From positions 1 to 64,000 of the forward strand of contig OZ001293.3 in assembly GCA_963921275.4 (NCBI GenBank): DNA of 64,000 nt. Reading direction: 5' to 3'. The notes under the pieces were generated by a model. That model made no database searches and was not told the origin of the DNA. It saw only the letters and a program-made list of their open reading frames with translations. The position numbers and the translations under genes were made by a program. Positions 21,040 to 55,290 of this stretch are shown piece by piece (the stretch's first letter is position 1; each line of letters opens with the position of its first letter). The stretch is from an uncultured Hormoscilla sp. GTDB lineage: Bacteria > Cyanobacteriota > Cyanobacteriia > Cyanobacteriales > Desertifilaceae.

Positions 21040-21591
21040 CTACCTGACTGAGTATGCTGCACAACAGTATAACAGTTCGTCCACTTTGTCCAAACTGAGA
21101 TCTTGTCGATCTGCTAAGGCTTTAATATGCTTAGCGATCGTCTGAATTTGGGAATTGTCTAAATCCAGCCCCAATTGCCTAGCCCTGGCAGCAATTGCAT
21201 GTTTGCCTGTCAGCTTGTGATTAATCGACAAGGTGCGCGTCAGATCGAAATCCTGGGAATCGATGATTTCGTAAGTCTTGGAGTGATTGAGCATCGCTTT
21301 GGTATGAATGCCAGCTTTATGATTGAAGGCCGCTTCCCCGACAATATAGTGGTTGTAGGGAATCGTAATTCCCACTTTCTCAGCCACCAATCGATGGACT
21401 GCTGACAGTTTCTTCAGCCGATATTTCCTATGCAATATTTGCGAATCAACCGTATAAAGGCGGGCAATCAGTCCTGCTAGGGGCGTAATCCCATTCCGTT
21501 CGCCAATGCCCAAGACTGTCGTATTGATGTGGGTAGCACCCGCTTCTAGGGCTGCGTAGCTATTAGCGATCGCGCAACCCGTGTCATTATG
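21040..21591 (-). pseudogene. C-terminal half of a homocitrate synthase/LeuA-family enzyme
   Basis: HNDTGCAIAN, GIGERNG, AFNHKAGIH; the N-terminal DRE motif region is absent. Confidence 0.75.
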
Positions 21592-22110
21592 ACCGAGCAT
21601 TCCCAACTATTTGACCAACTGCAATTACATTTGCGCAGTCAAATTCGCGGGTTCCAAAGTTTGACTGTTAAAGCTAGAGGGTGCCCTGGAAAAGTGATGA
21701 CTTTCTGGCGGGAACAAGGGTGCGATCGGGAATTAAGCCTGGCCGACTTATCGGACGGAAGTCTGCGTTTAATCTGTTGGTTCAGTCTTTGCCTGCACCC
21801 CAACCCGCCCTCTCTGATTTGTATCGACGAACCCGAACAGGGCCTTCATCCCCGGACCTTCCCAATTCTAGCGGCCTTCTTGGATAAAGCCTCCTGGGAA
21901 CACACCCAGATTCTTGTAACTTCCCATGTGTCATTTTTTCTCCTCCAGTTTGATTTTGAACAAATTGCCCTCCTCCGAAAAGAAAATGGGGCAGCTAAGT
22001 TCCTGAAGCCAGCTAAATCCAAAATTATAACAGACATGATAAAGGACTTTGGAATCGAGGAAATTGAGTTAATGCATCGTAGCGATGAGTTGGAGGTGCT
22101 GCCATTATGA
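21589..22110 (+). pseudogene. C-terminal half of an ABC-type (AAA_21-like) ATPase
   Basis: LSDGSLR signature, Walker B ICIDEPEQGLHP, H-loop VTSH; no Walker A. Confidence 0.75.
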
Positions 22111-22823
22111 GAGTCGTGATTTATGTGGAAGGTTTCTCTGACGAAAGTGCAATGAAAGCATTGCTAGCACCTTTAATTGCCGAAAAATTACAGCAAGGTA
22201 TCGTAATTCTCTTTGTTTCTGTTAAAGGGAGTGAAAATCAGAGGGGAGGTGATGCTAAAAAGGACTTACTGCTCAAGATTCCTGTCAAGGCAGTCAATAT
22301 GATCCTTAACGAGCCCAATGCAGTTGTTGTGGCCATTCCCGACTTATACCCGAAAAATAAGGGGTTCCCTCACGAAACCTTTGCGAAACTGAAGAAGGGA
22401 ATGATCGATAAGTTTCATGAAACTTTGCAAAGTCGAGGGTTGGGAGACGATCCTCGACTTACAGAGCGTTTTCAGGTATTCTGCTTTAAGTACGAGCTGG
22501 AAACCCTCATCCTTGCTGCTGAGGCGCAATTAAAAACCTTCCTTGGAGTCAATTCCTTGAAGGTGACATGGCAACTGCCAGTTGAGGATCAAAACCATGA
22601 TCTCCCCCCCAAACAGGTTGTCAAGAGACTTTTTGCTAGTTGCGGTAGACCCTATAAAGAAGCTGTAGATGCTGCCAATATCTTGAGGAATGCTTCCTAT
22701 CAAGATATTGCCGTTAGCGCAGCGCGGCGCCAGCCGTTCGCTGTCCTCAATGCTTTGGGCCATTTGTGGAGTTTCTGTCAGGGTTGGCAAATGTTTAGCC
22801 CACCCGAAACCCGGTTTCTCTAA
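22107..22823 (+). CDS. DUF4276-like (TOPRIM-like) protein, C-terminus frameshifted by a 23-nt insertion
   Basis: VIYVEGFSD, DLYP, YELETLILA; overlaps the ATPase stop (ATGA). Removing 22714-22736 restores RCPQCFGPFVEFL. Confidence 0.65.
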   Translation: MRVVIYVEGFSDESAMKALLAPLIAEKLQQGIVILFVSVKGSENQRGGDAKKDLLLKIPVKAVNMILNEPNAVVVAIPDLYPKNKGFPHETFAKLKKGMIDKFHETLQSRGLGDDPRLTERFQVFCFKYELETLILAAEAQLKTFLGVNSLKVTWQLPVEDQNHDLPPKQVVKRLFASCGRPYKEAVDAANILRNASYQDIAVSAARRQPFAVLNALGHLWSFCQGWQMFSPPETRFL

Positions 22824-22926: not shown

Positions 22927-23040
22927 TTACAAGGGCAGGTATTGGACGTAGTTTGCACAGTCTTCAGGATTACAGGCTTTAGCAATCAGTTCCAAGTCTC
23001 GTATACAATCACCAATATAGACATGGGATTGACGTAGTGA
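22927..23040 (-). pseudogene. C-terminal remnant of a DUF5615-like PIN toxin
   Basis: Reads IGDCIRDLELIAKACNPEDCANYVQYLPL*, recognised from memory as a typical C-terminus of that family. Confidence 0.45.
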
Positions 23041-23214
23041 TTTGACTGCGGTCCCGTGTCCCCGCTGGGGGCCAGTTGGGGCCACAATCTGGGTTTTCGG
23101 TAATCACTACTTGTGACCCATTACCTTTAACAGAAGCAACGATGTGATAATCTAAATTGAAAAATTATGTGCGCTTTTGTGTGTAAATCTTATTCTGGAA
23201 GAGTCTCTAAGGGA

Positions 23215-23680
23215 GTCCCTGATTCAGTCGGGGAAGTCCCTGACTACTGAGGTGAACTGTCGCACTCATTCGGAGACTTCCTGAATCATTCGGGGAAGTC
23301 CCTGAATCATTCGGGGAAGTCCCTGAATCATTCGGGGAAGTCCCTGACTACTGAGGGGAAGTGCCTGACTACTGAGTGGAAGTGCCTGACTACTAAGGGG
23401 AAGTGCCTGACTACTGAGTGGAAGTGCCTGACTACTGAGTGGAAGTGCCTGACTACTGAGTGGAAGTGTCGCACTCATTCGGTGAAGTGCCTGACTACTG
23501 AGGGGAAGTGCCTGACTACTGAGGGGAAGTGCCTGACTACTGAGGGGAAGTGCCGCATTCAGTCACTGAAGTGTTTACTACTAACCCGCAAGCACTTCAG
23601 TGCTTACTACTAACCCGCAAGCACTGAAGTGCTTACTACTAACCCGCCTACAAACTCGCAAGCACTCAAGTGCTTACTCG
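23215..23680. repeat. Mosaic 21-bp tandem array (17 units, 23215-23570) followed by about three 29-bp hairpin units
   Basis: Units such as GTGCCTG-ACTACTG-AGGGGAA and GTCCCTG-AATCATT-CGGGGAA, then GTGCTTACTACTAACCCGCAAGCACTGAA units. Confidence 0.95.
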
Positions 23681-23707
23681 CAGTTGTATAGAACAAGAGA
23701 CAAGATT

Positions 23708-23788
23708 ATGAATGATTACATTCCCAAAAATGATGCCGAGTATACTTCCTGGCAGGCTAACTTCGTTGAATATGTATCTGTAATCTGA
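23708..23788 (+). pseudogene. Truncated N-terminus of an MxDYIPxND-family protein (paralog of 32384-33049)
   Basis: MNDYIPKNDAEYTSWQANFVEYV versus MTDYIPRNDAEFSNWLANFISYI. Confidence 0.85.
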
Positions 23789-24280
23789 TATCATATCCGG
23801 TGAAATGTAAACCGTCTGTGTCCCTTGACAAGTATGATATTAACTCGTATCTGTCAAGGGACTCAGGAAAATTGTTTATATTTCTCCAGCAAGCGAGCAG
23901 CTTCGGCTACTTCTTCTTGAAACTCTTCCAATGTCATGCTATCGTCAAAGGGTGAAATGTCATACTCGCTCATTAAGTCTAACACCTGTAAGCGGGAAAG
24001 CGAGAGCAGTCTTGCTGCACGTCCGCTACTGATATCCCCTTGTTGCAACAGCGACATTATTAATGCTTCTTTTTTTTTGCGATATGCCTCTAACCAATGG
24101 GCTTCTGGTATGCCACTCACCGGAATGCTGAATTCAACTTGCATCGGTGCTTCTCTGATTTCCATAGTTTTTCCCCTCCTATCTGATATACTAGATTATA
24201 TCCGGTGAAATGTCAACCCTATGAGTCCCTTGACAAGTATGATATGATTATATAGTATCTGTCAAGGTACTCGGGAAAAT
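23783..24280. repeat. Pair of ~90-100-bp direct repeats (23783-23871, 24181-24280), each with an internal inverted repeat
   Basis: ATATCCGGTGAAATGT...GTCCCTTGACAAGTATGATAT...GTATCTGTCAAGG.ACTC.GGAAAAT occurs twice. Confidence 0.85.
23863..24165 (-). CDS. UPF0175-family (HTH, antitoxin-like) protein
   Basis: LLQQGDISSGRAARLLSLSR..LDLMSEYDIS pattern. Confidence 0.75.
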   Translation of the reverse strand: MEIREAPMQVEFSIPVSGIPEAHWLEAYRKKKEALIMSLLQQGDISSGRAARLLSLSRLQVLDLMSEYDISPFDDSMTLEEFQEEVAEAARLLEKYKQFS

Positions 24281-24292
24281 CAAGGAGAAAGC

Positions 24293-26002
24293 ATGACTTA
24301 CAGAATGGATCGCCGCGCCTACGCCCAAACCTACGGCCCCACGGTGGGCGATCGCCTGCGTCTGGCGGACACCGAACTGTTCGTGGAAGTGGAACGTGAT
24401 TATACCACCTATGGGGATGAAGTAAAGTTTGGCGGCGGCAAGGTGATCCGCGATGGCATGGGACAATCTCCCATTGCTAATGCTGATGGTGCGGTTGACA
24501 TGGTTATCACTAATGCGTTAATCTTAGATTGGTGGGGCATCGTTAAAGCTGATGTGGGCATCAAAGATGGTAAGATTGTGAAGATTGGTAAAGCAGGCAA
24601 TCCCTATATTCAAGATAATGTCGATATTATCATTGGTCCGGGCACCGAAGCAGTGGCGGGAGAAGGGATGATTCTGACCGCAGGGGCCATAGATGCCCAT
24701 ATTCATTTTATCTGTCCCCAACAGATTGAAACCGCGATCGCCTCCGGGATTACCACGATGCTGGGGGGCGGGACTGGCCCCGCTACGGGCACCAATGCTA
24801 CTACTTGTACTCCCGGACCTTGGCATATTCACCGCATGTTGCAAGCAGCTGATGATTTTTCTGTTAATCTCGGTTTCTTAGGTAAGGGTAACAGTGCCCA
24901 ACCCCAAGGATTAGTAGAACAGGTGATGGCCGGGGCCATGGGATTGAAGTTACATGAAGATTGGGGCAGTACCCCAGAGGCGATCGATACTTGCCTCTCC
25001 GTTGCTGATGCCTATGACCTGCAAGTTGCTATTCATACTGATACTCTCAATGAAGCGGGATTTGTGGAAACTACTATCAATGCTTTCAAAAATCGTGCCA
25101 TCCATACCTACCACACGGAAGGCGCTGGCGGCGGACATGCCCCCGATATTATTAAGGTTTGCGGCCAAGCAAATGTACTACCTTCTTCCACAAATCCTAC
25201 CCGTCCTTATACCCTTAATACTCTGGAAGAACACCTAGATATGCTGATGGTTTGCCACCATTTAGACCCGGGTATCCCCGAAGATGTCGCCTTCGCTGAG
25301 TCCCGCATTCGCCGGGAAACGATCGCTGCTGAAGATATCTTACATGATCTGGGCGCTTTTAGCATGATTGCTTCTGACTCCCAGGCTATGGGACGAGTCG
25401 GAGAAGTGATTATCAGAACTTGGCAAACGGCCCATAAAATGAAAGTACAGCGTTCTCACCTCCCCCAAGACCCAGATCGCCATGACAATTTCCGCGCTAA
25501 GCGCTATATTGCTAAGTATACTATTAACCCCGCTATTACCCACGGGATTTCCCAATATGTCGGTTCGGTCGAGGTTGACAAATTAGCAGATCTGTGCTTG
25601 TGGAAACCCGCATTCTTTGGCGTTAAACCAGAAATAGTGATCAAAGGTGGCGCGATCGCCTATGCCCAAATGGGAGACAGCAATGCTAGCATTCCTACAC
25701 CCCAACCGGTGCATATGCGCCCCATGTTTGCTGGCTTTGGCGGGGCGATCGCTGCTACTTCGGTCACCTTTGTCTCCCAAGCAGCACTCGAAAAAGAAAT
25801 TCCGGCCCAAATCGGGTTACAAAAACCCGCAGTTGCCGTCGGCAACACCCGGAAATTACGCAAGCAAGACATGAAACTAAACGACGCTTTGCCTGCTATA
25901 GAAGTAGACCCGGAAACCTACCAAGTCAGGGCCGATGGAGAATTACTTACCTGCGAACCCGCAACCCTCCTGCCATTGGCCCAACGCTATTTTCTCTTTT
26001 GA
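24293..26002 (+). CDS. ureC: Urease subunit alpha
   Basis: [51 protein letters not shown]. Confidence 0.99.
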
Positions 26003-26042
26003 CAGGTAAAGACTAAAGTCTTTACTACGAACGTGGGAATTT

Positions 26043-27884
26043 ATGGAAAGAAATTTAAATCTTATAGCTGGATTTCTGGAAACTGCCAGAAGGTCCTGGG
26101 ACAGATATCCCTCTATTGCCAGCTTTCTGCTTGTCAGTCTGCTTGCCTTCACTCTGACAACGGCACCAGCAGCTGTGGGGCAAATTCCCCGTTTGCTAGC
26201 ACAAACACCCAGCAGCACCCTCAACTCTACCGCCGATGTCATCCGCGTGGGAAATCTGATTTCCGCTCCCGTGATCCTAGATGGCTATAAACTATTCAGA
26301 GTGGCCGCAGTCGCCTCGATCGGGACCGAACAACAAGATGGTCAATTACCAATTCAGGCACGAGTGGAAATTATTCAGAATGAACTGAAGGGCATTATCT
26401 CTAACCAACTTGATGTAGGACCTATGGGACGAGGTTTCGACCCCGATACCCTGGAAGTTAACCTGGGCACTCTCAATAATTATACCGTAATTTTAGTCTC
26501 CGATGGCGATCGATTGGCAAGGCGAACAGTCATGACTGTCACTCCCCAAGATGCTCAACTATACGGACTGTCGGTGGAAACCTGGGCAGAAAACTTGACC
26601 GATATTATCCGCTTGGCCCTCATTCGAGCCCAAATCGAGCGATCGCCTCAATATTTGCTGGATCGGGGTTTAATCTCTGGGGGGATAATCCTCGCAGTGA
26701 TTCTCGTCACCAGAATACTAACTTTGTTGCAAAAACGGGCCTTAACTCAATGGGAAACTCTCCAGGAACTCGAACCCCAGGCAATACCAGAGTCGCCGCC
26801 ACCAACAACTGAGGCCGAATGGCCCATCCTCCAGCAGCACTCAGAGATCCTACAAGCCCATCAGGAAAGGTATGCTTGGGAAAGACGGCGAAATATCAAT
26901 ACTCTTCAGCGGTGGTTGCTGCAATGGAGTCGGGTGATAATTTGGGCTAGCGCTTTCACCGGGATCCTCCGACTATTTCCCTGGACTCGCTGGCTGCATT
27001 TTTTGCTGCTCAAACAGCCGATCTGGATTATGCTAATTTTTCTCGGTACTAACTTGGCGATTCGCGGCAGTTCTGTTGCGATCGACCGCTTCTTCAAGAC
27101 ATGGCAGGAAACCGGAACTCTCACCCGCACCGCTTCCCAACGACAGGCTTTGCGCTTTTCTACCTTTACCGTGGTACTCAAAGGGATTGCTACCTTTGTA
27201 TTTACTAGCACGGGCATTATTTTGATGCTCAATCAGCTACAGATTCCCGTTGGTCCGATACTAGCTGGTGCGGGAATTCTCGGCATTGCCATATCCTTTG
27301 CCTCCCAGAGTTTTGTCAAAGATGTTATCAATGGCTGCTTGATATTGTTGGAAGACCAGTATGCTGTGGGAGATGTGATTGATGTCGGCGGTGCATCTGG
27401 TTTAGTGGAGTATATGAACCTGCGGGTTACCCAATTGCGCGGGGCTGGCGGACGTCTCAGTACCATTCCCAATGGCAGTATTTCCATCGTTCATAATCTG
27501 ACTAAGGATTGGTCTCGGGCTGATTTCACGATCGATGTCTCCTATGACACGGATGTAGAACTGGCCCTGGCAGTGCTCAAACAGGTGGCCGAACAAATGC
27601 AAAGCGACTCGGAATGGCAAGAGACGATCCTAGACCCAGTAAACTTATTGGGCGTGAATAGAATCGATCACTCTGGCATCCAGATTGTGATTTGGATCAA
27701 AACTCAACCGATAAAGCAGTGGGCTGTGGAACGGGAGTTCCGCCGCCGCCTGAAACTAGCTTTTGCCGAACATGGAATCTCCATCGGCGTGCCCCAGCGA
27801 TCGCTCTTTTTACCCCATTACCCCGAATTACTCATGTTGGCGAAAAACAACAATTTAGATCGTCCCTTATCAAATAGCAATTAA
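26043..27884 (+). CDS. MscS-family mechanosensitive channel with N-terminal extension
   Basis: AGAGILGIAISFASQSFVKDVING..EDQYAVGDVI; IPNGSI..VHNLTKDWSR. Confidence 0.9.
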   Translation: MERNLNLIAGFLETARRSWDRYPSIASFLLVSLLAFTLTTAPAAVGQIPRLLAQTPSSTLNSTADVIRVGNLISAPVILDGYKLFRVAAVASIGTEQQDGQLPIQARVEIIQNELKGIISNQLDVGPMGRGFDPDTLEVNLGTLNNYTVILVSDGDRLARRTVMTVTPQDAQLYGLSVETWAENLTDIIRLALIRAQIERSPQYLLDRGLISGGIILAVILVTRILTLLQKRALTQWETLQELEPQAIPESPPPTTEAEWPILQQHSEILQAHQERYAWERRRNINTLQRWLLQWSRVIIWASAFTGILRLFPWTRWLHFLLLKQPIWIMLIFLGTNLAIRGSSVAIDRFFKTWQETGTLTRTASQRQALRFSTFTVVLKGIATFVFTSTGIILMLNQLQIPVGPILAGAGILGIAISFASQSFVKDVINGCLILLEDQYAVGDVIDVGGASGLVEYMNLRVTQLRGAGGRLSTIPNGSISIVHNLTKDWSRADFTIDVSYDTDVELALAVLKQVAEQMQSDSEWQETILDPVNLLGVNRIDHSGIQIVIWIKTQPIKQWAVEREFRRRLKLAFAEHGISIGVPQRSLFLPHYPELLMLAKNNNLDRPLSNSN

Positions 27885-27900
27885 CAATGCTCAAATAACA

Positions 27901-28998
27901 ATGTTCTCTAAAATATATAAAAAAGACCATATTATGGTTGTAGATGACTCCCGCAATAATCGCCTTTTAATCGAGTCTATTTTGGCAGGCGAGGGATACA
28001 AAATTACTGTCGCCGACAGCGGTGCGTTGGCCATTGCAGAAATTACTAAGTCTCCTCCCGATCTGGTCTTGCTGGATATCATGATGCCAGAAATGGATGG
28101 CTATGAGGTGACAAGAAGTCTGCGCGAAAATAATGACCTGCCATTTATGCCCATTCTACTGATCACTGCTTTCGATCGCCCTAGCTTGCCCCAGGGATTG
28201 GATATCGGTGCTGATGATTTTATCCGCAAACCTTTCGACTGGGATGAATTATTGGCGAGGGTGCGATCGCTTTTACGACTTAAGCACAGTTTGGACGAAC
28301 GGAACCATATTGCCCGCCAGCGCGAAGATTTTGTTTTTCGTCTGGCCCACGACATGCGCACTCCTTTGGTGGCAGCCGATCTGATGCTACATTTGTTGCA
28401 CCAGGGCGCTTTTGGTGCAGTACCGCCAGGAATAGATGAAGCCTTGGACAGGATAATTTCCAGCAACAAAAACCTCCTGAAAATGGTCAATGAACTGCTG
28501 GATGTCTATCGCTATGAGGCGGGTCGCAAAAACCTGGCCTTTTTCCCCATTAACTTACCAGATATGCTCTCTGAAATTTGCGCCGAACTTGAGCCCTTAG
28601 CAATGGAAAAACAACTGGATCTCAAGCTTAACCTGCCAGATAAGAGAGACGGCGAGGTAAAAGTGCTGGGCGACGTCCTGGAACTGCGCCGCGCGTTCAC
28701 CAACTTGATCGGCAATGGGATCAAATTCACAGATACTGGTTTTGTGGAAATTCGCTTCCATACTACTGCGACTCCCTACCTGACAGTTGAAATTCAAGAC
28801 ACGGGACCTGGCATTTCCACCCAAGATCGAGCTATATTATTTGAAAGGTTTCGTACTGGAAATCATACTCGTGCAGGCAGTGGCTTGGGCCTCTACCTGT
28901 CTCGCCAGATCCTAGAAGCCCACAAAGGCACCTTGGAACTCCAGTCTCAGCTAGGCGCTGGCAGTCTCTTCACTGTTCGCCTTCCTGTCTATTCATAA
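27901..28998 (+). CDS. Hybrid response regulator / histidine kinase
   Basis: Receiver domain (VVDD, LLDIMMP, KPF); HisKA LAHDMRTPL; HATPase NGIKFT, DTGPGI, GSGLGL. Confidence 0.92.
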   Translation: MFSKIYKKDHIMVVDDSRNNRLLIESILAGEGYKITVADSGALAIAEITKSPPDLVLLDIMMPEMDGYEVTRSLRENNDLPFMPILLITAFDRPSLPQGLDIGADDFIRKPFDWDELLARVRSLLRLKHSLDERNHIARQREDFVFRLAHDMRTPLVAADLMLHLLHQGAFGAVPPGIDEALDRIISSNKNLLKMVNELLDVYRYEAGRKNLAFFPINLPDMLSEICAELEPLAMEKQLDLKLNLPDKRDGEVKVLGDVLELRRAFTNLIGNGIKFTDTGFVEIRFHTTATPYLTVEIQDTGPGISTQDRAILFERFRTGNHTRAGSGLGLYLSRQILEAHKGTLELQSQLGAGSLFTVRLPVYS

Positions 28999-29072
28999 TT
29001 GTCAGTTGTCAGCTGTCAATGCAATAATTTTGAATGAGAGAATATTGAATGAGAGAATTACTTAGGGGAAAT

Positions 29073-30461
29073 ATGGTAACTCAACTGCCAGTTAACAAGA
29101 ACGGTGACATTATCGGTAAACAGCGGCAATTTTTCGCTAGCGGCAAAACTAAAGATGTCAGGTTTCGCATCGCACAACTCCAGAAGCTAAAACAGGCGAT
29201 CGCCTCTAATCAATCGGCAATTTTTGCCGCATTGCAGGTAAATTTATGCAAACCGGAACAGGAAAGCTATGCATATGAGATTAGGGTGCCAGTAACCAGA
29301 GAAATAGATGATGCGATCGAGCAAATTAAGTCTTGGACGAAACCTCGGAAAGTATCTACCCCGATCGAACAATTTCCCGCCACTGCCAAAATTTATCCCG
29401 AACCCCTGGGTGTAGTATTAATTATCGCCTGGAATTACCCCTTTTCTCTGATTCTGTCGCCCCTAGTAGGGGCGATCGCCGCTGGGAACTGCGCCATTCT
29501 CAAACCTTCAGAAATCTCGGCTCACAGTTCTGGGATTATCGCATCTATAATAGAGAAAACCTTCGACCCAGAATATATTGCCGTTGTGGAAGGGGGTGTC
29601 CAAACCAGTCAGCAACTACTAGCCGAAAAATTCGACCACATCTTTTTTACAGGCGGAACGGCGGTGTGCAAAATTGTCATGGCAGCAGCAGCAAAACAGC
29701 TGACGCCAGTCACCCTAGAACTGGGTGGCAAAAGTCCCTGCATCGTTGATACCGCTATCAACCTGGAATGCGCGGCCAAACGAATTGTCTGGGGGAAATT
29801 TCTCAATGCAGGTCAAAGCTGCATCGTCCCTGATTACCTGTTGGTAGACAAAAAAATTAAACCCCAGTTATTAGACCGCATTAAAAGCTGCCTTGTGGAA
29901 TTTTATGGAGAAGATCCAGCCAAAAGTCCTGATTATGCTAGAATTATTAATAGCAAACAGTTCAACCGTCTAGTCCAATTACTGCAGGATGGCGAAATAA
30001 TCCTGGGCGGCCAAACAGACCCCGAAGACCTCTACATCGCCCCCACGGTGATGGATAAGGTAGACTGGGATGCACCAGTAATGCAAGAAGAAATCTTTGG
30101 ACCGATTTTGCCCGTGCTGGAATGTACTAGCATAGAAGAGGCGATCAGCCAAATAAATGCTAGACCAAAACCCCTGGCCCTCTATCTGTTCTCCCGGAAT
30201 AAAACCTATCAACAAATGGTTTTGCAGCAGACTTCATCGGGCGGTGTTTGTCTGAACGACACGATGATGCAATATGGCGTCTCGGAACTGCCATTTGGCG
30301 GCGTCGGGAATAGCGGGTTTGGTAGTTATCACGGTAAGGCCAGTTTTAATACTTTTTCCCATTACAAGACAGTCTTGACTAGGTCTTTCCTGCTAGACTT
30401 GGATGTGAGATATCCTCCCTACCAAGGTAAACTGAAATTGCTAAAATGGCTAATTGGTTGA
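29073..30461 (+). CDS. Aldehyde dehydrogenase (family 3-like)
   Basis: WNYP, FFTGG, LELGGKSP, GQSC, EEIFGP. Confidence 0.93.
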   Translation: MVTQLPVNKNGDIIGKQRQFFASGKTKDVRFRIAQLQKLKQAIASNQSAIFAALQVNLCKPEQESYAYEIRVPVTREIDDAIEQIKSWTKPRKVSTPIEQFPATAKIYPEPLGVVLIIAWNYPFSLILSPLVGAIAAGNCAILKPSEISAHSSGIIASIIEKTFDPEYIAVVEGGVQTSQQLLAEKFDHIFFTGGTAVCKIVMAAAAKQLTPVTLELGGKSPCIVDTAINLECAAKRIVWGKFLNAGQSCIVPDYLLVDKKIKPQLLDRIKSCLVEFYGEDPAKSPDYARIINSKQFNRLVQLLQDGEIILGGQTDPEDLYIAPTVMDKVDWDAPVMQEEIFGPILPVLECTSIEEAISQINARPKPLALYLFSRNKTYQQMVLQQTSSGGVCLNDTMMQYGVSELPFGGVGNSGFGSYHGKASFNTFSHYKTVLTRSFLLDLDVRYPPYQGKLKLLKWLIG

Positions 30462-30540
30462 GGTTGAAATCGGTGTCATTGCTCGGGGGGCTGCCAAAGT
30501 AGTAACTGTGGTATGCTTCAACTTTTGACCCCCCGTAGCG

Positions 30541-31160
30541 CTACCTCAGCAATCCCATTAACTTTACCCCAGATGGGGGTTGATTTTCCAGAAATGTAAT
30601 AGCCGCTTTTAATGTTTTTTGCATCGCCGATCGGTACATCCCCAAGGCTTGCAAAGCTTGCGCTTGGTTAATCTGAGTGCCGATAACTCCCTGCATGTCC
30701 CCCGCTTGGCGATAATAGCCAGCTGTTTCTTGCCATGTTTCTACCGCCTTTGCCGATTTTCCCAGTCCTAATTCTAGATTGCCTTTAGCATTGAGGACGG
30801 CGGCGATAATCTGCGGAGATTTTTTTCCCTGTAATAATGATAGACTATTTGCGATCGCCGATTCCGCTTGCTGCCACTGTCCCAATTTTTGATAAGCTAA
30901 GGAGAGATAGCTGAGGGTTAATGCTTGATTCAACCCGTCTCCTTTCCCTTCTAGGCTACTGGCCGCCCGTTCCCAAACCCGTGCAGCTTTCGAAAACCTT
31001 TGTCAAATGATTGCTTGCCTTGCTTTAACAGGGCTATATCTGTAGATTGGACAGTAGCAAGTGATAAAGGTAACCTTTCTGGCCTCGGGGCCTGCTGGGC
31101 TTGAGCCGGAAAAGCATTGCTTATCAGTACAAGACATATAATCTTTAACCACAATAACAT
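30541..31160 (-). pseudogene. TPR-repeat protein N-terminus (CHAT-protein-like), frameshifted and truncated
   Basis: Signal-like N-terminus, then TPR-like helices (LSYLSLAYQKLGQWQQA; INQAQALQALG) in different frames. Confidence 0.6.
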
Positions 31161-31731
31161 TGCTCAAGTCCCCCATCCTAATTTTTCCCTCGTTCCCAGG
31201 GTCTCCCTGGGAACGAACCCTCTGAGGCTCTGCCTCTTCCGCCATCCTAATTTTATATTATTTTGTTTTTCGCGTAGCGTGGGAGGGGCAGACTAGCGAG
31301 TAACTTAGGCGAAATAGAGTTACCCCCCCTCCCGTAGCGCTACGCGCACTTCGTAAAAGCGCAGCGGCCCGACACGCTACGCTGGAGGGCTAGCAATCTC
31401 CGACAGCAGATCACACAAAGGATGAGAACTGCTATAATCCTTGTGCTGGGTCTATTTGGGCTTGAATTTCTACTGTACCATCAATGTTATTTTCCGATGT
31501 GGCCGTTATCTCACTTTCCTTGTCGAGAAACACTCCCGATGCCGTAATGGAGATATTACCACCCCGGCCATCAATTCGTGCGGAAACCCAACCTACAGAT
31601 ACTGTGGGTCGATAATCTCCATGTTATCTCCGATTATTGTGATATTTATCACAATAATATATGATAAATATCACAATATTGCTGCTGCTGGGCAACTGTG
31701 GTCTTGCATGGTAAATCAAAGGTCTTTTTCT

Positions 31732-32035
31732 GGGGAAACTAATTTACAGTCAGATAGCTGTACGACTGCATTTTACCGAAGCACCAGATAGTATCGTTTC
31801 TGCACGGGCCAGCATTGCTAACCTACGGGCCAGCATTACTAACGCACGGACCAGCTTTGCCTCTGCACGGACTAGCATTACTAACGCACGGACTAGCTTT
31901 GCTAACCTACGGGCCAACTTTGCCTCTGCACGGGCCAACCTTGCTAACGCACGGGCCAACCTTGCTAACGCACGACTGCTTCGGGGAAACTAATTTACAA
32001 TCGGATAGCTGTACGGCTGCACCTTACCGAAGCAC
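31732..32035. repeat. Mosaic 21-bp tandem array (8 units, 31802-31969) flanked by 53-bp direct repeats (31732-31784, 31983-32035)
   Basis: Units such as GCACGGG-CCAGCAT-TGCTAAC and CTACGGG-CCAACTT-TGCCTCT; flanks GGGGAAACTAATTTACA.TC.GATAGCTGTACG.CTGCA..TTACCGAAGCAC. Confidence 0.95.
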
Positions 32036-32383
32036 GAACGAGGGCGATGGAAGCACGACTGCATATTTTAGTCGTCACCACACTGTTTAACAAAGCCAAG
32101 AGGAACCTTGCTTGCGCAACCACGAACTTTGCCGCAGCAAAATTGCTTTTGGAGAAAGCAAAAATCAGACGTTAAGTTCCCCGATGGGTTCGGGGAACTA
32201 AAAAAAGATGTCGGATGTCTGCAAAATTAAACCTGTGGGGCTCTCTGGGCATCAGCTCTTCCCCCCATCTGGCGGGCGATACAGCCTTGTCGCCCCAGAA
32301 CCAGGACCTTTAAATTTTCCGCCCCGATGGGACGCGACCCCCACAGAAGTGAAATGGCAGTTACATGGAAATGGAGCAAGACT

Positions 32384-33049
32384 ATGACAGATTACATTCC
32401 CAGAAATGATGCTGAGTTTAGCAATTGGCTTGCCAACTTTATCAGCTACATAGCTGCTCATCTGGACCAATTAAAATTGACCCCAGATGACTTAGCTGCA
32501 TTACAGAGCAAGCAAACTGGCTGGACTACCGCCTATGCTGACCACCAAGCTGCCCAAACTGCGGCGGAAAGTGCTTGTCGCCATAAAGATGATTGTCGCA
32601 AAGAAGCTGAGTCCCTACTCCGCCGCATCACTCAACAGCTACAATCTAATCCTATCCTCACCGATAGCCAACGATCGGCCTTGGGCATTACCATCCGACA
32701 GGGACAAAGGACTAGAGTTGCCGTACCCACCACTCGACCCGTGGGGCGCGTTCAAAAGAGCGATCGCTTCCGCCACGTAATTCATTTCGTGGACGAAGAA
32801 ACCCTCAACCGTCGGGCCAAACCGGAGGGAGTATTCGGTTGTGAAATTTGGGTCAAATTGGGAGACGCCCCGCCCATTGACCCGGACAAGGAGTTAAAGT
32901 TCTTAGGAACTAATACATCCGCACCCTTCGAGGTCAGCTATCGGGGAGAGGATGCAGGCAAAACCGCTCATTACATGTTGCGCTGGGTGAATAAGCGGGG
33001 CAAAACCGGTCCTTGGAGTGCCACTGTCAGTGCCATTATTCAAGGATAA
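32384..33049 (+). CDS. Uncharacterised MxDYIPxND-family protein (helical N-terminus, predicted FN3/Ig-like C-terminus)
   Basis: Intact 221-aa ORF; GGAG upstream of the ATG; C-terminal YMLRWVNKRGKTGPWS resembles FN3 terminal strands; two decayed paralogs in the window. Confidence 0.8.
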   Translation: MTDYIPRNDAEFSNWLANFISYIAAHLDQLKLTPDDLAALQSKQTGWTTAYADHQAAQTAAESACRHKDDCRKEAESLLRRITQQLQSNPILTDSQRSALGITIRQGQRTRVAVPTTRPVGRVQKSDRFRHVIHFVDEETLNRRAKPEGVFGCEIWVKLGDAPPIDPDKELKFLGTNTSAPFEVSYRGEDAGKTAHYMLRWVNKRGKTGPWSATVSAIIQG

Positions 33050-54236: not shown

Positions 54237-55012
54237 TCAGTTAATCGTATCGGGATCTATTCCCAGAGCCTGTAAGTATTGCGCTAATTGTTCGGCACGT
54301 TGAATTGCGGCCTCAGCACGTTGACGTTCTGCATTTATTTGCCGTTCGAGTTCTTCTAGTTCTTGTCGCAGTCTGAGTTCCTCTCGGACCAAATAGTCTA
54401 CATCCGGCTGATCTAGTATTCGAGCTACCGGTAAAATCAATCCCGGAAATTGCGCGCTATTGACTTCATCTCCCGGCAAAAAATCCCGCTCTGCGTAACT
54501 CGATTCTCCGGAAATTTTACTACACAACCGCACCCGGGACCGCTCGGAGTCTACGATCCAATACTCCGGAATATCGAGGCGTGAGTATTCATTTCGTTTG
54601 GTTGAGTAGTCCTCGCGCCAATTTTGACTTGTCACTTCTACTACTAAGAGGGGTTTTTGTCAAAGTTCAGCACTGCTGCGCCTTTGCGATCGCTGCGCGA
54701 AAAATCGCAAACATTTTTTTAAAAACTTTGATGACAAACGACTACATCTGGTATTCTCGATGTATTTTCTTCCGTTCTCACTCCCGTCAAGTCTATCGCT
54801 ACCAAGTTCAAGTTTTCTGATACCAAGTAGCGCAGAAACTCGACGGTTAAAAATTTACTTATTAGGTTATGTAAACCTGTCGTTGTTGGCATTTCGATCA
54901 ATTGACCGCGATAGAGTTCGTACAGCACACCCGGTTCTCCGGAATACTCTAGGTATTCAGCAAAGCTCAGGGTCTTTTGAGAAATATTAACATCAACCGT
55001 CGAACCTACCAT
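54237..55012 (-). pseudogene. Uma2-family endonuclease, disrupted at about 54660-54720
   Basis: YELYRGQLIEMP, RIPDVVV, then VEVTS.NW..DY..K..EY..L.IPEYWIVD in another frame. Confidence 0.85.
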
Positions 55013-55144
55013 ATTTTTTCCCTCACATCAACGCTCCGATATTAGCACGGAATTTGCAGTCTTGCACCAGTGGGTAAAGAGGGCGATCGCGCAGCAGTTG
55101 GCAAGAAACCGGGTTTCTATTATCACTTTTCGGCGATCGCCGGT

Positions 55145-55290
55145 CTGGAAAGGTGCGGATGTATCTGTTCCCTTGAATTTTAAATCTTTGTCGGGGTCCG
55201 TGGGGTCTGGCAATTGGTAAATTTCTCTACCAATACTCCCGTAGGTTGGGCCCGAGGGTTGGGGGTTTCCGAGTCGGTGGAAATAGAGCG
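55145..55290 (-). pseudogene. Decayed internal fragment of the MxDYIPxND-family gene
   Basis: DSETPNPRAQPTGV and DPDKDLKFKGTDTSAPF versus DEETLNRRAKPEGV and DPDKELKFLGTNTSAPF in 32384-33049. Confidence 0.8.

Follow-up and report, generated by a model that had tools for sequence, protein, structure and literature searches.

The window examined here is a 64,000-nucleotide stretch of DNA from an uncultured Hormoscilla sp. (positions 1 to 64,000 of contig OZ001293.3), and it holds two tandem arrays of 21-bp units, each placed upstream of a member of the same gene family. This partnership is far broader than the window. The pairing extends over at least five named phyla, including Acidobacteriota, Planctomycetota and Armatimonadota, and to a sister gene family. 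A functional partnership between array and gene, which an earlier note on this DNA had proposed from conserved period and position combined with divergent sequence, is strongly supported. The window arrays are tentatively read, with less than even confidence, as local copies of a conserved two-part cassette, consisting of an array and a stand-alone gene encoding a protein of about 220 aa, in which the array would act as a cis DNA element.

Arrays upstream of one gene superfamily

Array 1 (23214..23554; about 16 units of 21 bp in two main unit variants) and array 2 (31799..31974; 8 units of 21 bp) are both non-coding and were assigned to neither strand. Tandem Repeats Finder (TRF) reported array 1 in two rows of period 21, at 23214-23368 (7.4 copies) and 23292-23554 (12.5 copies, 88% matches), and array 2 in one row of period 21 at 31803-31974 (8.2 copies), with a 63-bp super-period at 31799-31974. 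The two arrays have no sequence in common. They are the only long 21-bp arrays in the window, as had been claimed: among the 46 TRF rows obtained, the single other one of period 21 was a two-copy repeat at 54787-54828. At lag 21, array 1 had a self-match of 0.79 and array 2 one of 0.75, compared with 0.26-0.29 at lags 20 and 22; at lags 7 and 14 the values in both arrays, 0.13-0.18, did not exceed background. Array 2 also gave 0.79 at lag 63. Since self-match is high at 21 and low at 20, 22, 7 and 14, the period is sharp, and the substructure of interchangeable 7-nt modules (3 x 7 nt) that the earlier note had described is not real. The unit variants do differ block-wise, yet without a heptamer sub-period. 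True 7-nt arrays exist elsewhere in the genome, for example upstream of the paralogue at 2250061.

The gene preceded by array 2, at a spacing of 409 bp, is intact (32384..33049, plus strand) and encodes a protein of 221 aa, designated P0001. The gene preceded by array 1 is a truncated member of the family (23708..23788, plus strand), comprising 26 codons of the conserved N-terminus followed by a stop, with the remainder of the gene absent; tblastn with P0001 aligned residues 1-25 to it at 56% identity. Both genes share the start context CAAGA(T/C)TATG, and the family membership of both downstream genes agrees with what had first been seen.

The same arrangement was found throughout the genome, a 7.0-Mb cyanobacterial assembly with 47% G+C that is rich in highly iterated palindrome 1 (HIP1). 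Each of the 11 family N-termini in it (11/11) has an array with a period of 7n bp ending 56-437 bp upstream. When the sister family, termed c2, was included, 17 of the 18 superfamily N-termini had an array of period 21, 42, 63 or 84 at most 650 bp upstream, compared with 3.9% of 20,000 random positions.

Relatives were then collected by a pattern scan that used one genome per species and returned 115 relatives, from which 80 loci were kept. The analysis covered the 58 loci in which the match starts at query residue 1-3, and 22 loci with the N-terminus missing or cut by a contig end were dropped. Loci were obtained from Pyrinomonadaceae, Blastocatellia, Phycisphaerae, Pirellulales, Armatimonadota, Hormoscilla and Oscillatoria sp. 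PCC 10802, as well as from one Ignavibacteria and one Bacteroidales metagenome-assembled genome (MAG); individual loci are cited below by number (L002 to L063). Controls were 281 other open reading frames (ORFs) of at least 150 aa from the same loci. The earlier note had suggested checking homologues for flanking arrays, and they are enriched: TRF placed an array of period 21, 42, 63 or 84 at most 600 bp upstream of the gene in 38/58 loci, compared with 13/281 control ORFs. By a measure independent of TRF, the strongest local periodicity among lags 5-45 was 21 or 42 in 45/58 upstream regions and in 14/281 controls, raw counts that, like those from TRF, overstate the formal significance because loci of related genomes are not independent; the arrays across loci nevertheless have many unrelated sequences. 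The top lag was 21 in 33 of the 58 loci and 42 in 13. Loci without a signal include L002, in which a transposase gene lies directly upstream.

The sister family gave an independent replication of the association. Among 80 c2 loci from metagenomes, 67 had at least 450 bp of upstream sequence; a TRF array of period 21n was present in 30 of these 67 and a top lag of 21 or 42 in 43, while the downstream 600 bp scored 0/52 on both measures. The earlier note had also named, as a point that would speak against a partnership, arrays that are common regardless of the gene. That description holds for the present genome, with 197 arrays of at least 80 bp of which about 17 adjoin the superfamily, and does not hold for the loci from other phyla, where 41 of the 61 such arrays fall within the 600 bp upstream of the gene, or 6.3% of the sequence.

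The arrays belong to a published class of repeats, which is now tied to a gene superfamily. Subirana and Messeguer (PMC8161180) described enigmatic bacterial tandem repeats, including cyanobacterial ones, of variable sequence and a constant size of 20-21 nt, equal to two turns of DNA, and as far as that description goes no function was assigned. The present arrays resemble the class in their period, which is 21 in both window arrays and predominates genome-wide (400 TRF rows, compared with 51 at period 20 and 59 at period 22), in forming several unrelated sequence families per genome (74 k-mer families, with 50 singletons, among the 197 arrays here), and in encoding no amino-acid repeats (159 of the 197 arrays are not within long open frames, and 14 of 54 arrays compared across loci have stops in all three sense frames). 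They differ from it in being tied to one protein superfamily, a link to a gene or position that is not apparent from the published description. Full-text literature searches joining the repeat, the FN3 domain and the upstream position, which did not extend to supplements, returned no description of a gene link, and a further one led to literature on heptamer repeats alone. In the account of PMC8161180 the constant-size repeats had neither a function nor a genetic handle; their tie to a large superfamily without a Pfam entry turns a descriptive puzzle into a testable one, with a defined gene, a defined position, natural variants of both orientations and cultured carriers.

The encoded proteins and their copies

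P0001 matched no Pfam or NCBIfam family, and searches of PADLOC and PHROGs with it were likewise negative. Its AlphaFold model (predicted local distance difference test, pLDDT, 93.5) consists of an N-terminal helical hairpin, with helices at residues 9-25 and 34-88, and a C-terminal beta domain at residues 112-221. The latter was assigned to the FN3 fold by its match to 4yfe_B (Z 12.7, root-mean-square deviation 2.2, 98 residues aligned) and by a Foldseek match (E 1.9e-4); P0001 itself misses the threshold of Pfam fn3 (PF00041). When the N-terminal domain was modelled alone (pLDDT 91.9), the fold search returned generic helical hairpins with a best Z of 7.0. No known nucleic-acid-binding fold was present among the structural matches of P0001 or of its N-terminal domain. 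The extreme N-terminus, which carries the DYIP motif, is among the best-conserved parts of the protein, and by eye no N-terminal hydrophobic stretch suggestive of a signal peptide was seen. Family proteins are mostly acidic (median isoelectric point (pI) 5.7 and net charge -4 among 28 members), with conserved basic residues K68, R72, R80 and R97 on the long helix.

Among 349 candidates, 90 were homologues of about 220 aa; none of these had a precomputed Pfam domain, and those with a name were called hypothetical. A profile search of 1.84 billion cluster representatives yielded 7368 at E <= 0.001 and 4512 at E <= 1e-10. A protein atlas contains look-alike clusters whose most frequent taxa are Bacteroidota and Planctomycetota. 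The c2 proteins, of about 205 aa, are preceded by 21-bp arrays both in this genome and in metagenome contigs, and at least 402 metagenomic relatives were counted. The N-terminal helical domains of c2 and P0001 are homologous (hhalign probability 95%, E 3.1e-8, 106 columns), and at the C-terminus two of three tested c2 members pass the Pfam fn3 cut-off of 25 bits (31.8 and 25.3 bits), the third scoring 20.2. The c2 proteins are also acidic (median pI 4.77, 70 members). Examples on C1 of this genome are located at 210790-211398, 1374836-1375444, 3349489-3350118, 3795894-3796499 and 5120262-5120867.

A tblastn search of the genome found 7 full-length paralogues of P0001, of which one has an internal stop. 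Fragments of the gene were found as well: 4 from the N-terminus, several from the C-terminus and about 8 short ones from the interior. All copies lie on the 6.9-Mb contig. Array sequences differ between the paralogue subgroups, one sequence type being specific to each subgroup, and most of these types recur elsewhere as solo arrays: one solo array for the window gene, three for group 1, three and four for two other paralogues, and 4-7 for the c2 members. No gene lies consistently downstream of solo arrays that share a sequence type, and the idea that the arrays of one type define a regulon was rejected for that reason. As a separate observation, 14 arrays lie 90-550 bp upstream of genes for very large leucine-rich-repeat (LRR), cadherin-like or glycine-rich proteins, among them the arrays at C1 4598717-4599036, 5620505-5620680, 6320142-6320317 and 5740195-5740274. 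An apparent link between one paralogue and the arrays upstream of giant surface-protein genes was an artefact of single-linkage chaining, with 0 shared 9-mers.

Turnover is much more rapid in the arrays than in the gene itself. Between the window gene and the group-1 paralogues, identity is about 74% over the coding DNA, and the upstream sequences have no similarity. Decayed copies whose flanks are 88-97% identical differ in both array type and copy number, and in two decayed copies with flanks 95% identical the arrays have 16 and 3 units; in the related MAG loci L035 and L036, the arrays are of equal size. The internal gene fragments (residues about 109-161, with a stop) directly adjoin a 21-bp array in 8/8 cases. 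These eight decayed cassettes are located on C1, at 4478757, 6687598, 5527052, 6491120, 6771613, 6425376, 167256 and 4485025. Two cassettes (C1 about 3814470-3816170 and 4281940-4283610) share a 1.7-kb unit at 93% identity that includes the gene together with about 900 bp before it and about 100 bp after it; its sharp common ends within unrelated flanks hint at a discrete mobile unit.

The distribution of the gene is patchy. Among 301 sampled cyanobacterial genomes the family was present in the present genome only (1/301), and the same was true of c2. The family was found at two loci on viral contigs and was absent from the phage and plasmid records searched, the latter comprising 72,556 entries queried with P0001 by tblastn. 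No conserved neighbour recurred in 15 loci compared by Pfam or in 58 loci compared by BLASTP clustering. The downstream gene is co-directional in 33/54 loci, with diverse functions, and a position at the head of polysaccharide operons was considered and rejected, as it covers a minority of loci only (L019, L025, L028, L047 and L040). The contexts are variable regions with transposases, Fic, SIR2-STAND, HEPN/NTase, SLATT and AbiTii genes and polysaccharide clusters. In the Acidobacteriota loci L021, L014 and L008, array and gene are separated, or the array is replaced, by an insert of about 230 bp whose ends are inverted repeats and which by eye resembles a miniature inverted-repeat transposable element.

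Candidate functions of the array

A cis-acting phased element at the DNA level best accounts for a period of exactly two helical turns, a sequence that is free, an orientation that can flip and a constant position 5' of the gene family, though the chance that it is correct is judged to be somewhat under one half. At 10.5 bp per turn, no whole-number period below 21 bp keeps a long series of units in register with the DNA helix, and at 21 bp every unit therefore presents the same face. The cassette comprises a non-coding array phased strictly at 21 bp and, 50-640 bp further on, the helical hairpin/FN3 gene; it is chromosomal, free of fixed neighbours and located in variable regions, and it has spread across phyla and both multiplied and decayed in this genome. 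The array would act as DNA, in cis, on the transcription of the adjoining gene, presumably being read by some protein: units on the same face could line up as in-phase sites to which a multimerising factor binds, or produce coherent curvature. Units often carry a short palindrome, and the fast-changing copy number might tune the output. If this is correct, the arrays would represent a class of cis-regulatory DNA in bacteria in which geometry is conserved instead of sequence.

As regards orientation, one unit type common to many Planctomycetota loci occurs in the sense direction in L024, L031, L032, L035-L038, L042 and L045 and reversed in L010, L034 and L063. Between L010 and L032 there were 0 shared 9-mers forward and 15 in reverse, and between L045 and L063 there were 1 forward and 14 in reverse. 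Because the upstream neighbour is co-directional in L010 and L034, no divergent gene there owns the reversed array. Arrays of this type thus occur in either orientation relative to the gene. No RNA feature proved common to the arrays: terminator-like sites between array and gene are scarce (3/54), Shine-Dalgarno-like motifs lack a strand bias, and of the two window arrays one alone is predicted to fold better than shuffles. With regard to palindromes, the best arm per unit averaged 4.39 over 54 arrays compared with 3.45 in shuffles, and 4.68 compared with 3.53 for c2 units; one pair of c2 half-sites was present in 21/67 upstream regions and in 0/60 downstream ones.

Several results weigh against a DNA-level element, in addition to the non-independence of related loci mentioned above. 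A palindrome arm of at least 5 was found in only 21/54 arrays, many units having no palindrome, and per-column conservation of the units showed no two-patch pattern one helical turn apart. Scans for promoters, like those for terminators, covered the window loci and two paralogue loci and yielded no signal exceeding shuffles. The cassette's own protein, being mostly acidic, is a poor candidate for a reader, and no other candidate emerged. In L035-L037, in L063 and in two paralogues, the array ends 50-60 bp before the start codon, a gap in which a promoter would hardly fit; this favours an array that is transcribed. Three further features would fit a role as RNA: GGA is commoner on the sense strand (29 versus 16), a weak sense-strand excess of G over C is present in 36/54 arrays, and array 1 is predicted to fold well as sense RNA alone (z -4.28, better than all 100 shuffles, compared with z +0.18 for the antisense strand).

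These last points belong to the main rival of the DNA-element reading, an RNA-level leader, in which the array would be transcribed in the 5' part of the mRNA or as a repeat RNA and would control stability, processing or translation by way of small hairpins in rows or of a single long one. This is possible, if rather unlikely. By eye, -10-like boxes are located directly upstream of several cyanobacterial arrays, and a promoter-like site at 31637-31665 precedes array 2; an inverted copy of at least 10 nt lies within the array in 21/54 cases, and a mirrored arm was found in L012, L021, L055 and L063. A precedent is provided by Haemophilus hmw1A, whose 7-nt repeats lie in the 5' untranslated region (5'-UTR) and involve RNase III (PMC12721329). 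However, the repetitive non-coding RNA that had been among the earlier suggestions is weakened, since one unit type is placed both forward and reversed with respect to the gene. Hairpins are not universal; array 2 is no more stable than shuffles on either strand (z +1.33 and -0.60); an exact period of 21 instead of 20 or 22 is left unexplained; and neither arrays nor leaders matched any Rfam family at the gathering threshold or at E <= 1. A decoy for Shine-Dalgarno (SD) sequences or a sponge for CsrA was tried as a specific form of RNA action and rejected, as SD-like 4-mers in the arrays have no strand bias (17 versus 20) and GGA is absent from many arrays.

According to a third reading, decidedly unlikely in our estimate, array and protein are a cognate pair: each FN3 paralogue would recognise its own array as DNA or RNA, regulate itself and possibly act on solo arrays too, with a variant resembling type III toxin-antitoxin systems. 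The protein, or a complex nucleated by it, would read the phased array, and each paralogue would own an array family including the solo arrays. Its favourable points are that the protein is the only component conserved across phyla, that array types are specific to paralogue subgroups and mostly recur as solo arrays, that unit motifs are common to Planctomycetota and Acidobacteriota loci whose sole shared feature is the gene, and that the basic residues of the long helix are conserved. Against these stand the acidity of both families and the absence of a known DNA- or RNA-binding fold among matches that comprise a clear FN3 domain and a non-specific hairpin, and binding of the array by the encoded protein, one of the earlier proposals, is for these reasons not supported. 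Solo arrays lack a consistent downstream gene and may be relics instead of targets, because the copies form a decay series from intact to truncated gene, to fragment, to solo array. No PADLOC or PHROGs match was obtained, and a terminator-like hairpin with a T-run lies between array and gene in the sense direction in only 3/54 spacers (antisense in 6/54, and in neither window locus). If the protein does read the array, it would be a new nucleic-acid recognition module, and a cognate pair would give the constant-size 20-21-nt bacterial repeats their first function; it is improbable, on the same estimate, that the hairpin/FN3 protein and its period-locked 21-bp array are such a new two-component unit in thousands of bacterial genomes. 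Very unlikely, in turn, is a selfish or mutational by-product, in which the cassette is or was mobile and the arrays are minisatellites formed at its 5' end or used for mobility, with no role in expression. The presence in one of 301 cyanobacterial genomes alongside 7 full copies and many fragments, the 1.7-kb unit with sharp ends, the array beside every internal fragment, the abundance of arrays away from the gene, and the location of loci among transposase, defence and polysaccharide genes are in its favour, but a by-product would not retain an exact 21-bp period in 45/58 loci from at least five named phyla with proteins 35-55% identical, no transposase or recombinase travels with the cassette, and viral, phage and plasmid records are nearly devoid of it. 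A coding repeat, in which 21 bp would specify a repeat of seven residues in a protein encoded upstream or overlapping the array, is extremely improbable. The unit length is divisible by three and several arrays are open in at least one frame (array 2 on both strands), but besides the 14 of 54 arrays stopped in the three sense frames, stops in all six frames are present in 9/54, including array 1; neither a conserved peptide nor a start codon is apparent, and the ORFs over the arrays in the ORF list are short.

Known systems that pair repeats with a gene, namely plasmid iterons, REP/RAYT elements, type III toxin-antitoxin systems and simple-sequence-repeat (SSR) contingency loci, share one or two features each with the cassette and differ in others. 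Iterons are direct repeats of about two helical turns that adjoin a Rep gene, and Rep is a winged-helix initiator. The cassette is similar in having direct repeats of that length, of family-specific sequence, beside a protein gene; in contrast, it has no plasmid or origin context, its copies being on the 6.9-Mb contig, and its protein differs from Rep initiators in belonging to no Pfam family, in its predicted helical hairpin and FN3 domain and in being mostly acidic. Repetitive extragenic palindromic (REP) sequences flank genes of REP-associated tyrosine transposases (RAYT; HUH tyrosine transposases) as dispersed hairpin pairs. The likeness lies in a paralogue flanked by its own repeat family, which is also dispersed elsewhere, and the difference in the arrays being tandem and not dispersed hairpin pairs; no HUH or other enzyme-like fold was among the listed fold matches of P0001, which also has no Pfam match. 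In type III toxin-antitoxin systems, the ToxI units are 36 nt long and are followed by a terminator. The cassette differs from these in its 21-bp units, the scarcity of terminator-like sites, the flips of orientation and the lack of PADLOC and Pfam matches. The fold matches listed are FN3 and generic helical hairpins, and the absence of ToxN, AbiQ, CptN and TenpN from that list does not exclude that family. The points of likeness to ToxIN and other type III systems (PMC3401426, PMC8860590) are a tandem array directly upstream of a single protein gene, family-specific repeats and a location in variable regions. For the hmw1A contingency locus, as described in PMC12721329, they are a tandem array between promoter region and start codon, an unstable copy number and a length that could set expression; the cassette departs from it in its 21-bp unit without a 7-nt sub-period, in the conservation of the period across phyla with free sequence, in orientations that can flip and in the lack of a long hairpin at most loci. 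The cyanobacterial short tandemly repeated repetitive (STRR) or TAACTGA-type heptamer repeats treated by MacGregor 2015 (PMC4679880) are, in that account, short and intergenic, often located just before start codons and assigned no function. The window arrays are like them as short intergenic tandem repeats common in cyanobacteria, and unlike them in that the true period there is 7, in that the window arrays have no lag-7 signal and in that the gene family reaches beyond cyanobacteria.

Elements around the window arrays

Upstream of array 1 is a conserved block of about 120 bp (23030..23150, plus strand) with, by eye, a long internal inverted repeat. It has 9 BLASTN matches in the genome, of which four cover most of the block at 88-94% identity, and three of those four sit upstream of the paralogous cassettes at 1210449, 4282330 and 3815671. 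Between array 1 and the gene fragment lies a 29-bp hairpin tandem repeat (23564..23647, no strand assigned; TRF period 29, 2.9 copies); the spacer that holds it has 84 BLASTN matches at dozens of further sites, the repeat family being dispersed genome-wide. Array 2 is flanked by a direct repeat of 53-70 bp identified by BLASTN, with a left copy at 31725..31798 and a right copy at 31975..32045 (neither assigned to a strand); 31732-31784 and 31983-32035 are 90.6% identical. Two further copies of the direct repeat flank the sole other array of the array-2 sequence type, at about 6265000. The arrays break contigs assembled from short reads in four sequencing runs, and one contig of run X1 skips 126 bp, or 6 units, inside array 1, which may be an assembly collapse.

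Downstream of the 23708 fragment are a UPF0175 gene and then ureC. The UPF0175 (antitoxin-like) gene, at 23863-24165 on the minus strand, lies between two direct repeats of about 80 bp (window 23789-24275), each of which holds by eye an internal inverted repeat; the left copy has 3 BLASTN matches in the genome. This gene and its repeats sit exactly at the point where the family gene at 23708 is cut off. A third family fragment, covering residues about 149-187, was found at 55133-55240 on the minus strand, 305 bp from the period-21 repeat at 54787-54828. Directly upstream of the array-1 locus, at 21589-22823, are an AAA_21 ORF (AbiEii-like ATPase, C-terminal part only) and then a DUF4276 ORF, which together form a defence-type gene pair. 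An Rfam match to 5_ureB_sRNA (87.7 bits, 24448-24734, minus strand) is antisense inside the urease alpha-subunit gene at 24293-26002 and is probably due to the conserved coding sequence, not to a real small RNA (sRNA).

An 885-bp repeat near several cassettes was considered as an associated element and rejected, its proximity being due to chance. It is an ORF-less group II intron of about 885 bp (for example 1210-2091) that ends in a match to intron domains V/VI, and Rfam Intron_gpII matches end at 2089, 11176, 15033, 16015, 38577 and 43096 in the window. With 518 BLASTN matches in the genome, many at more than 99% identity, this non-autonomous group II intron has multiplied in a burst of unusual size.

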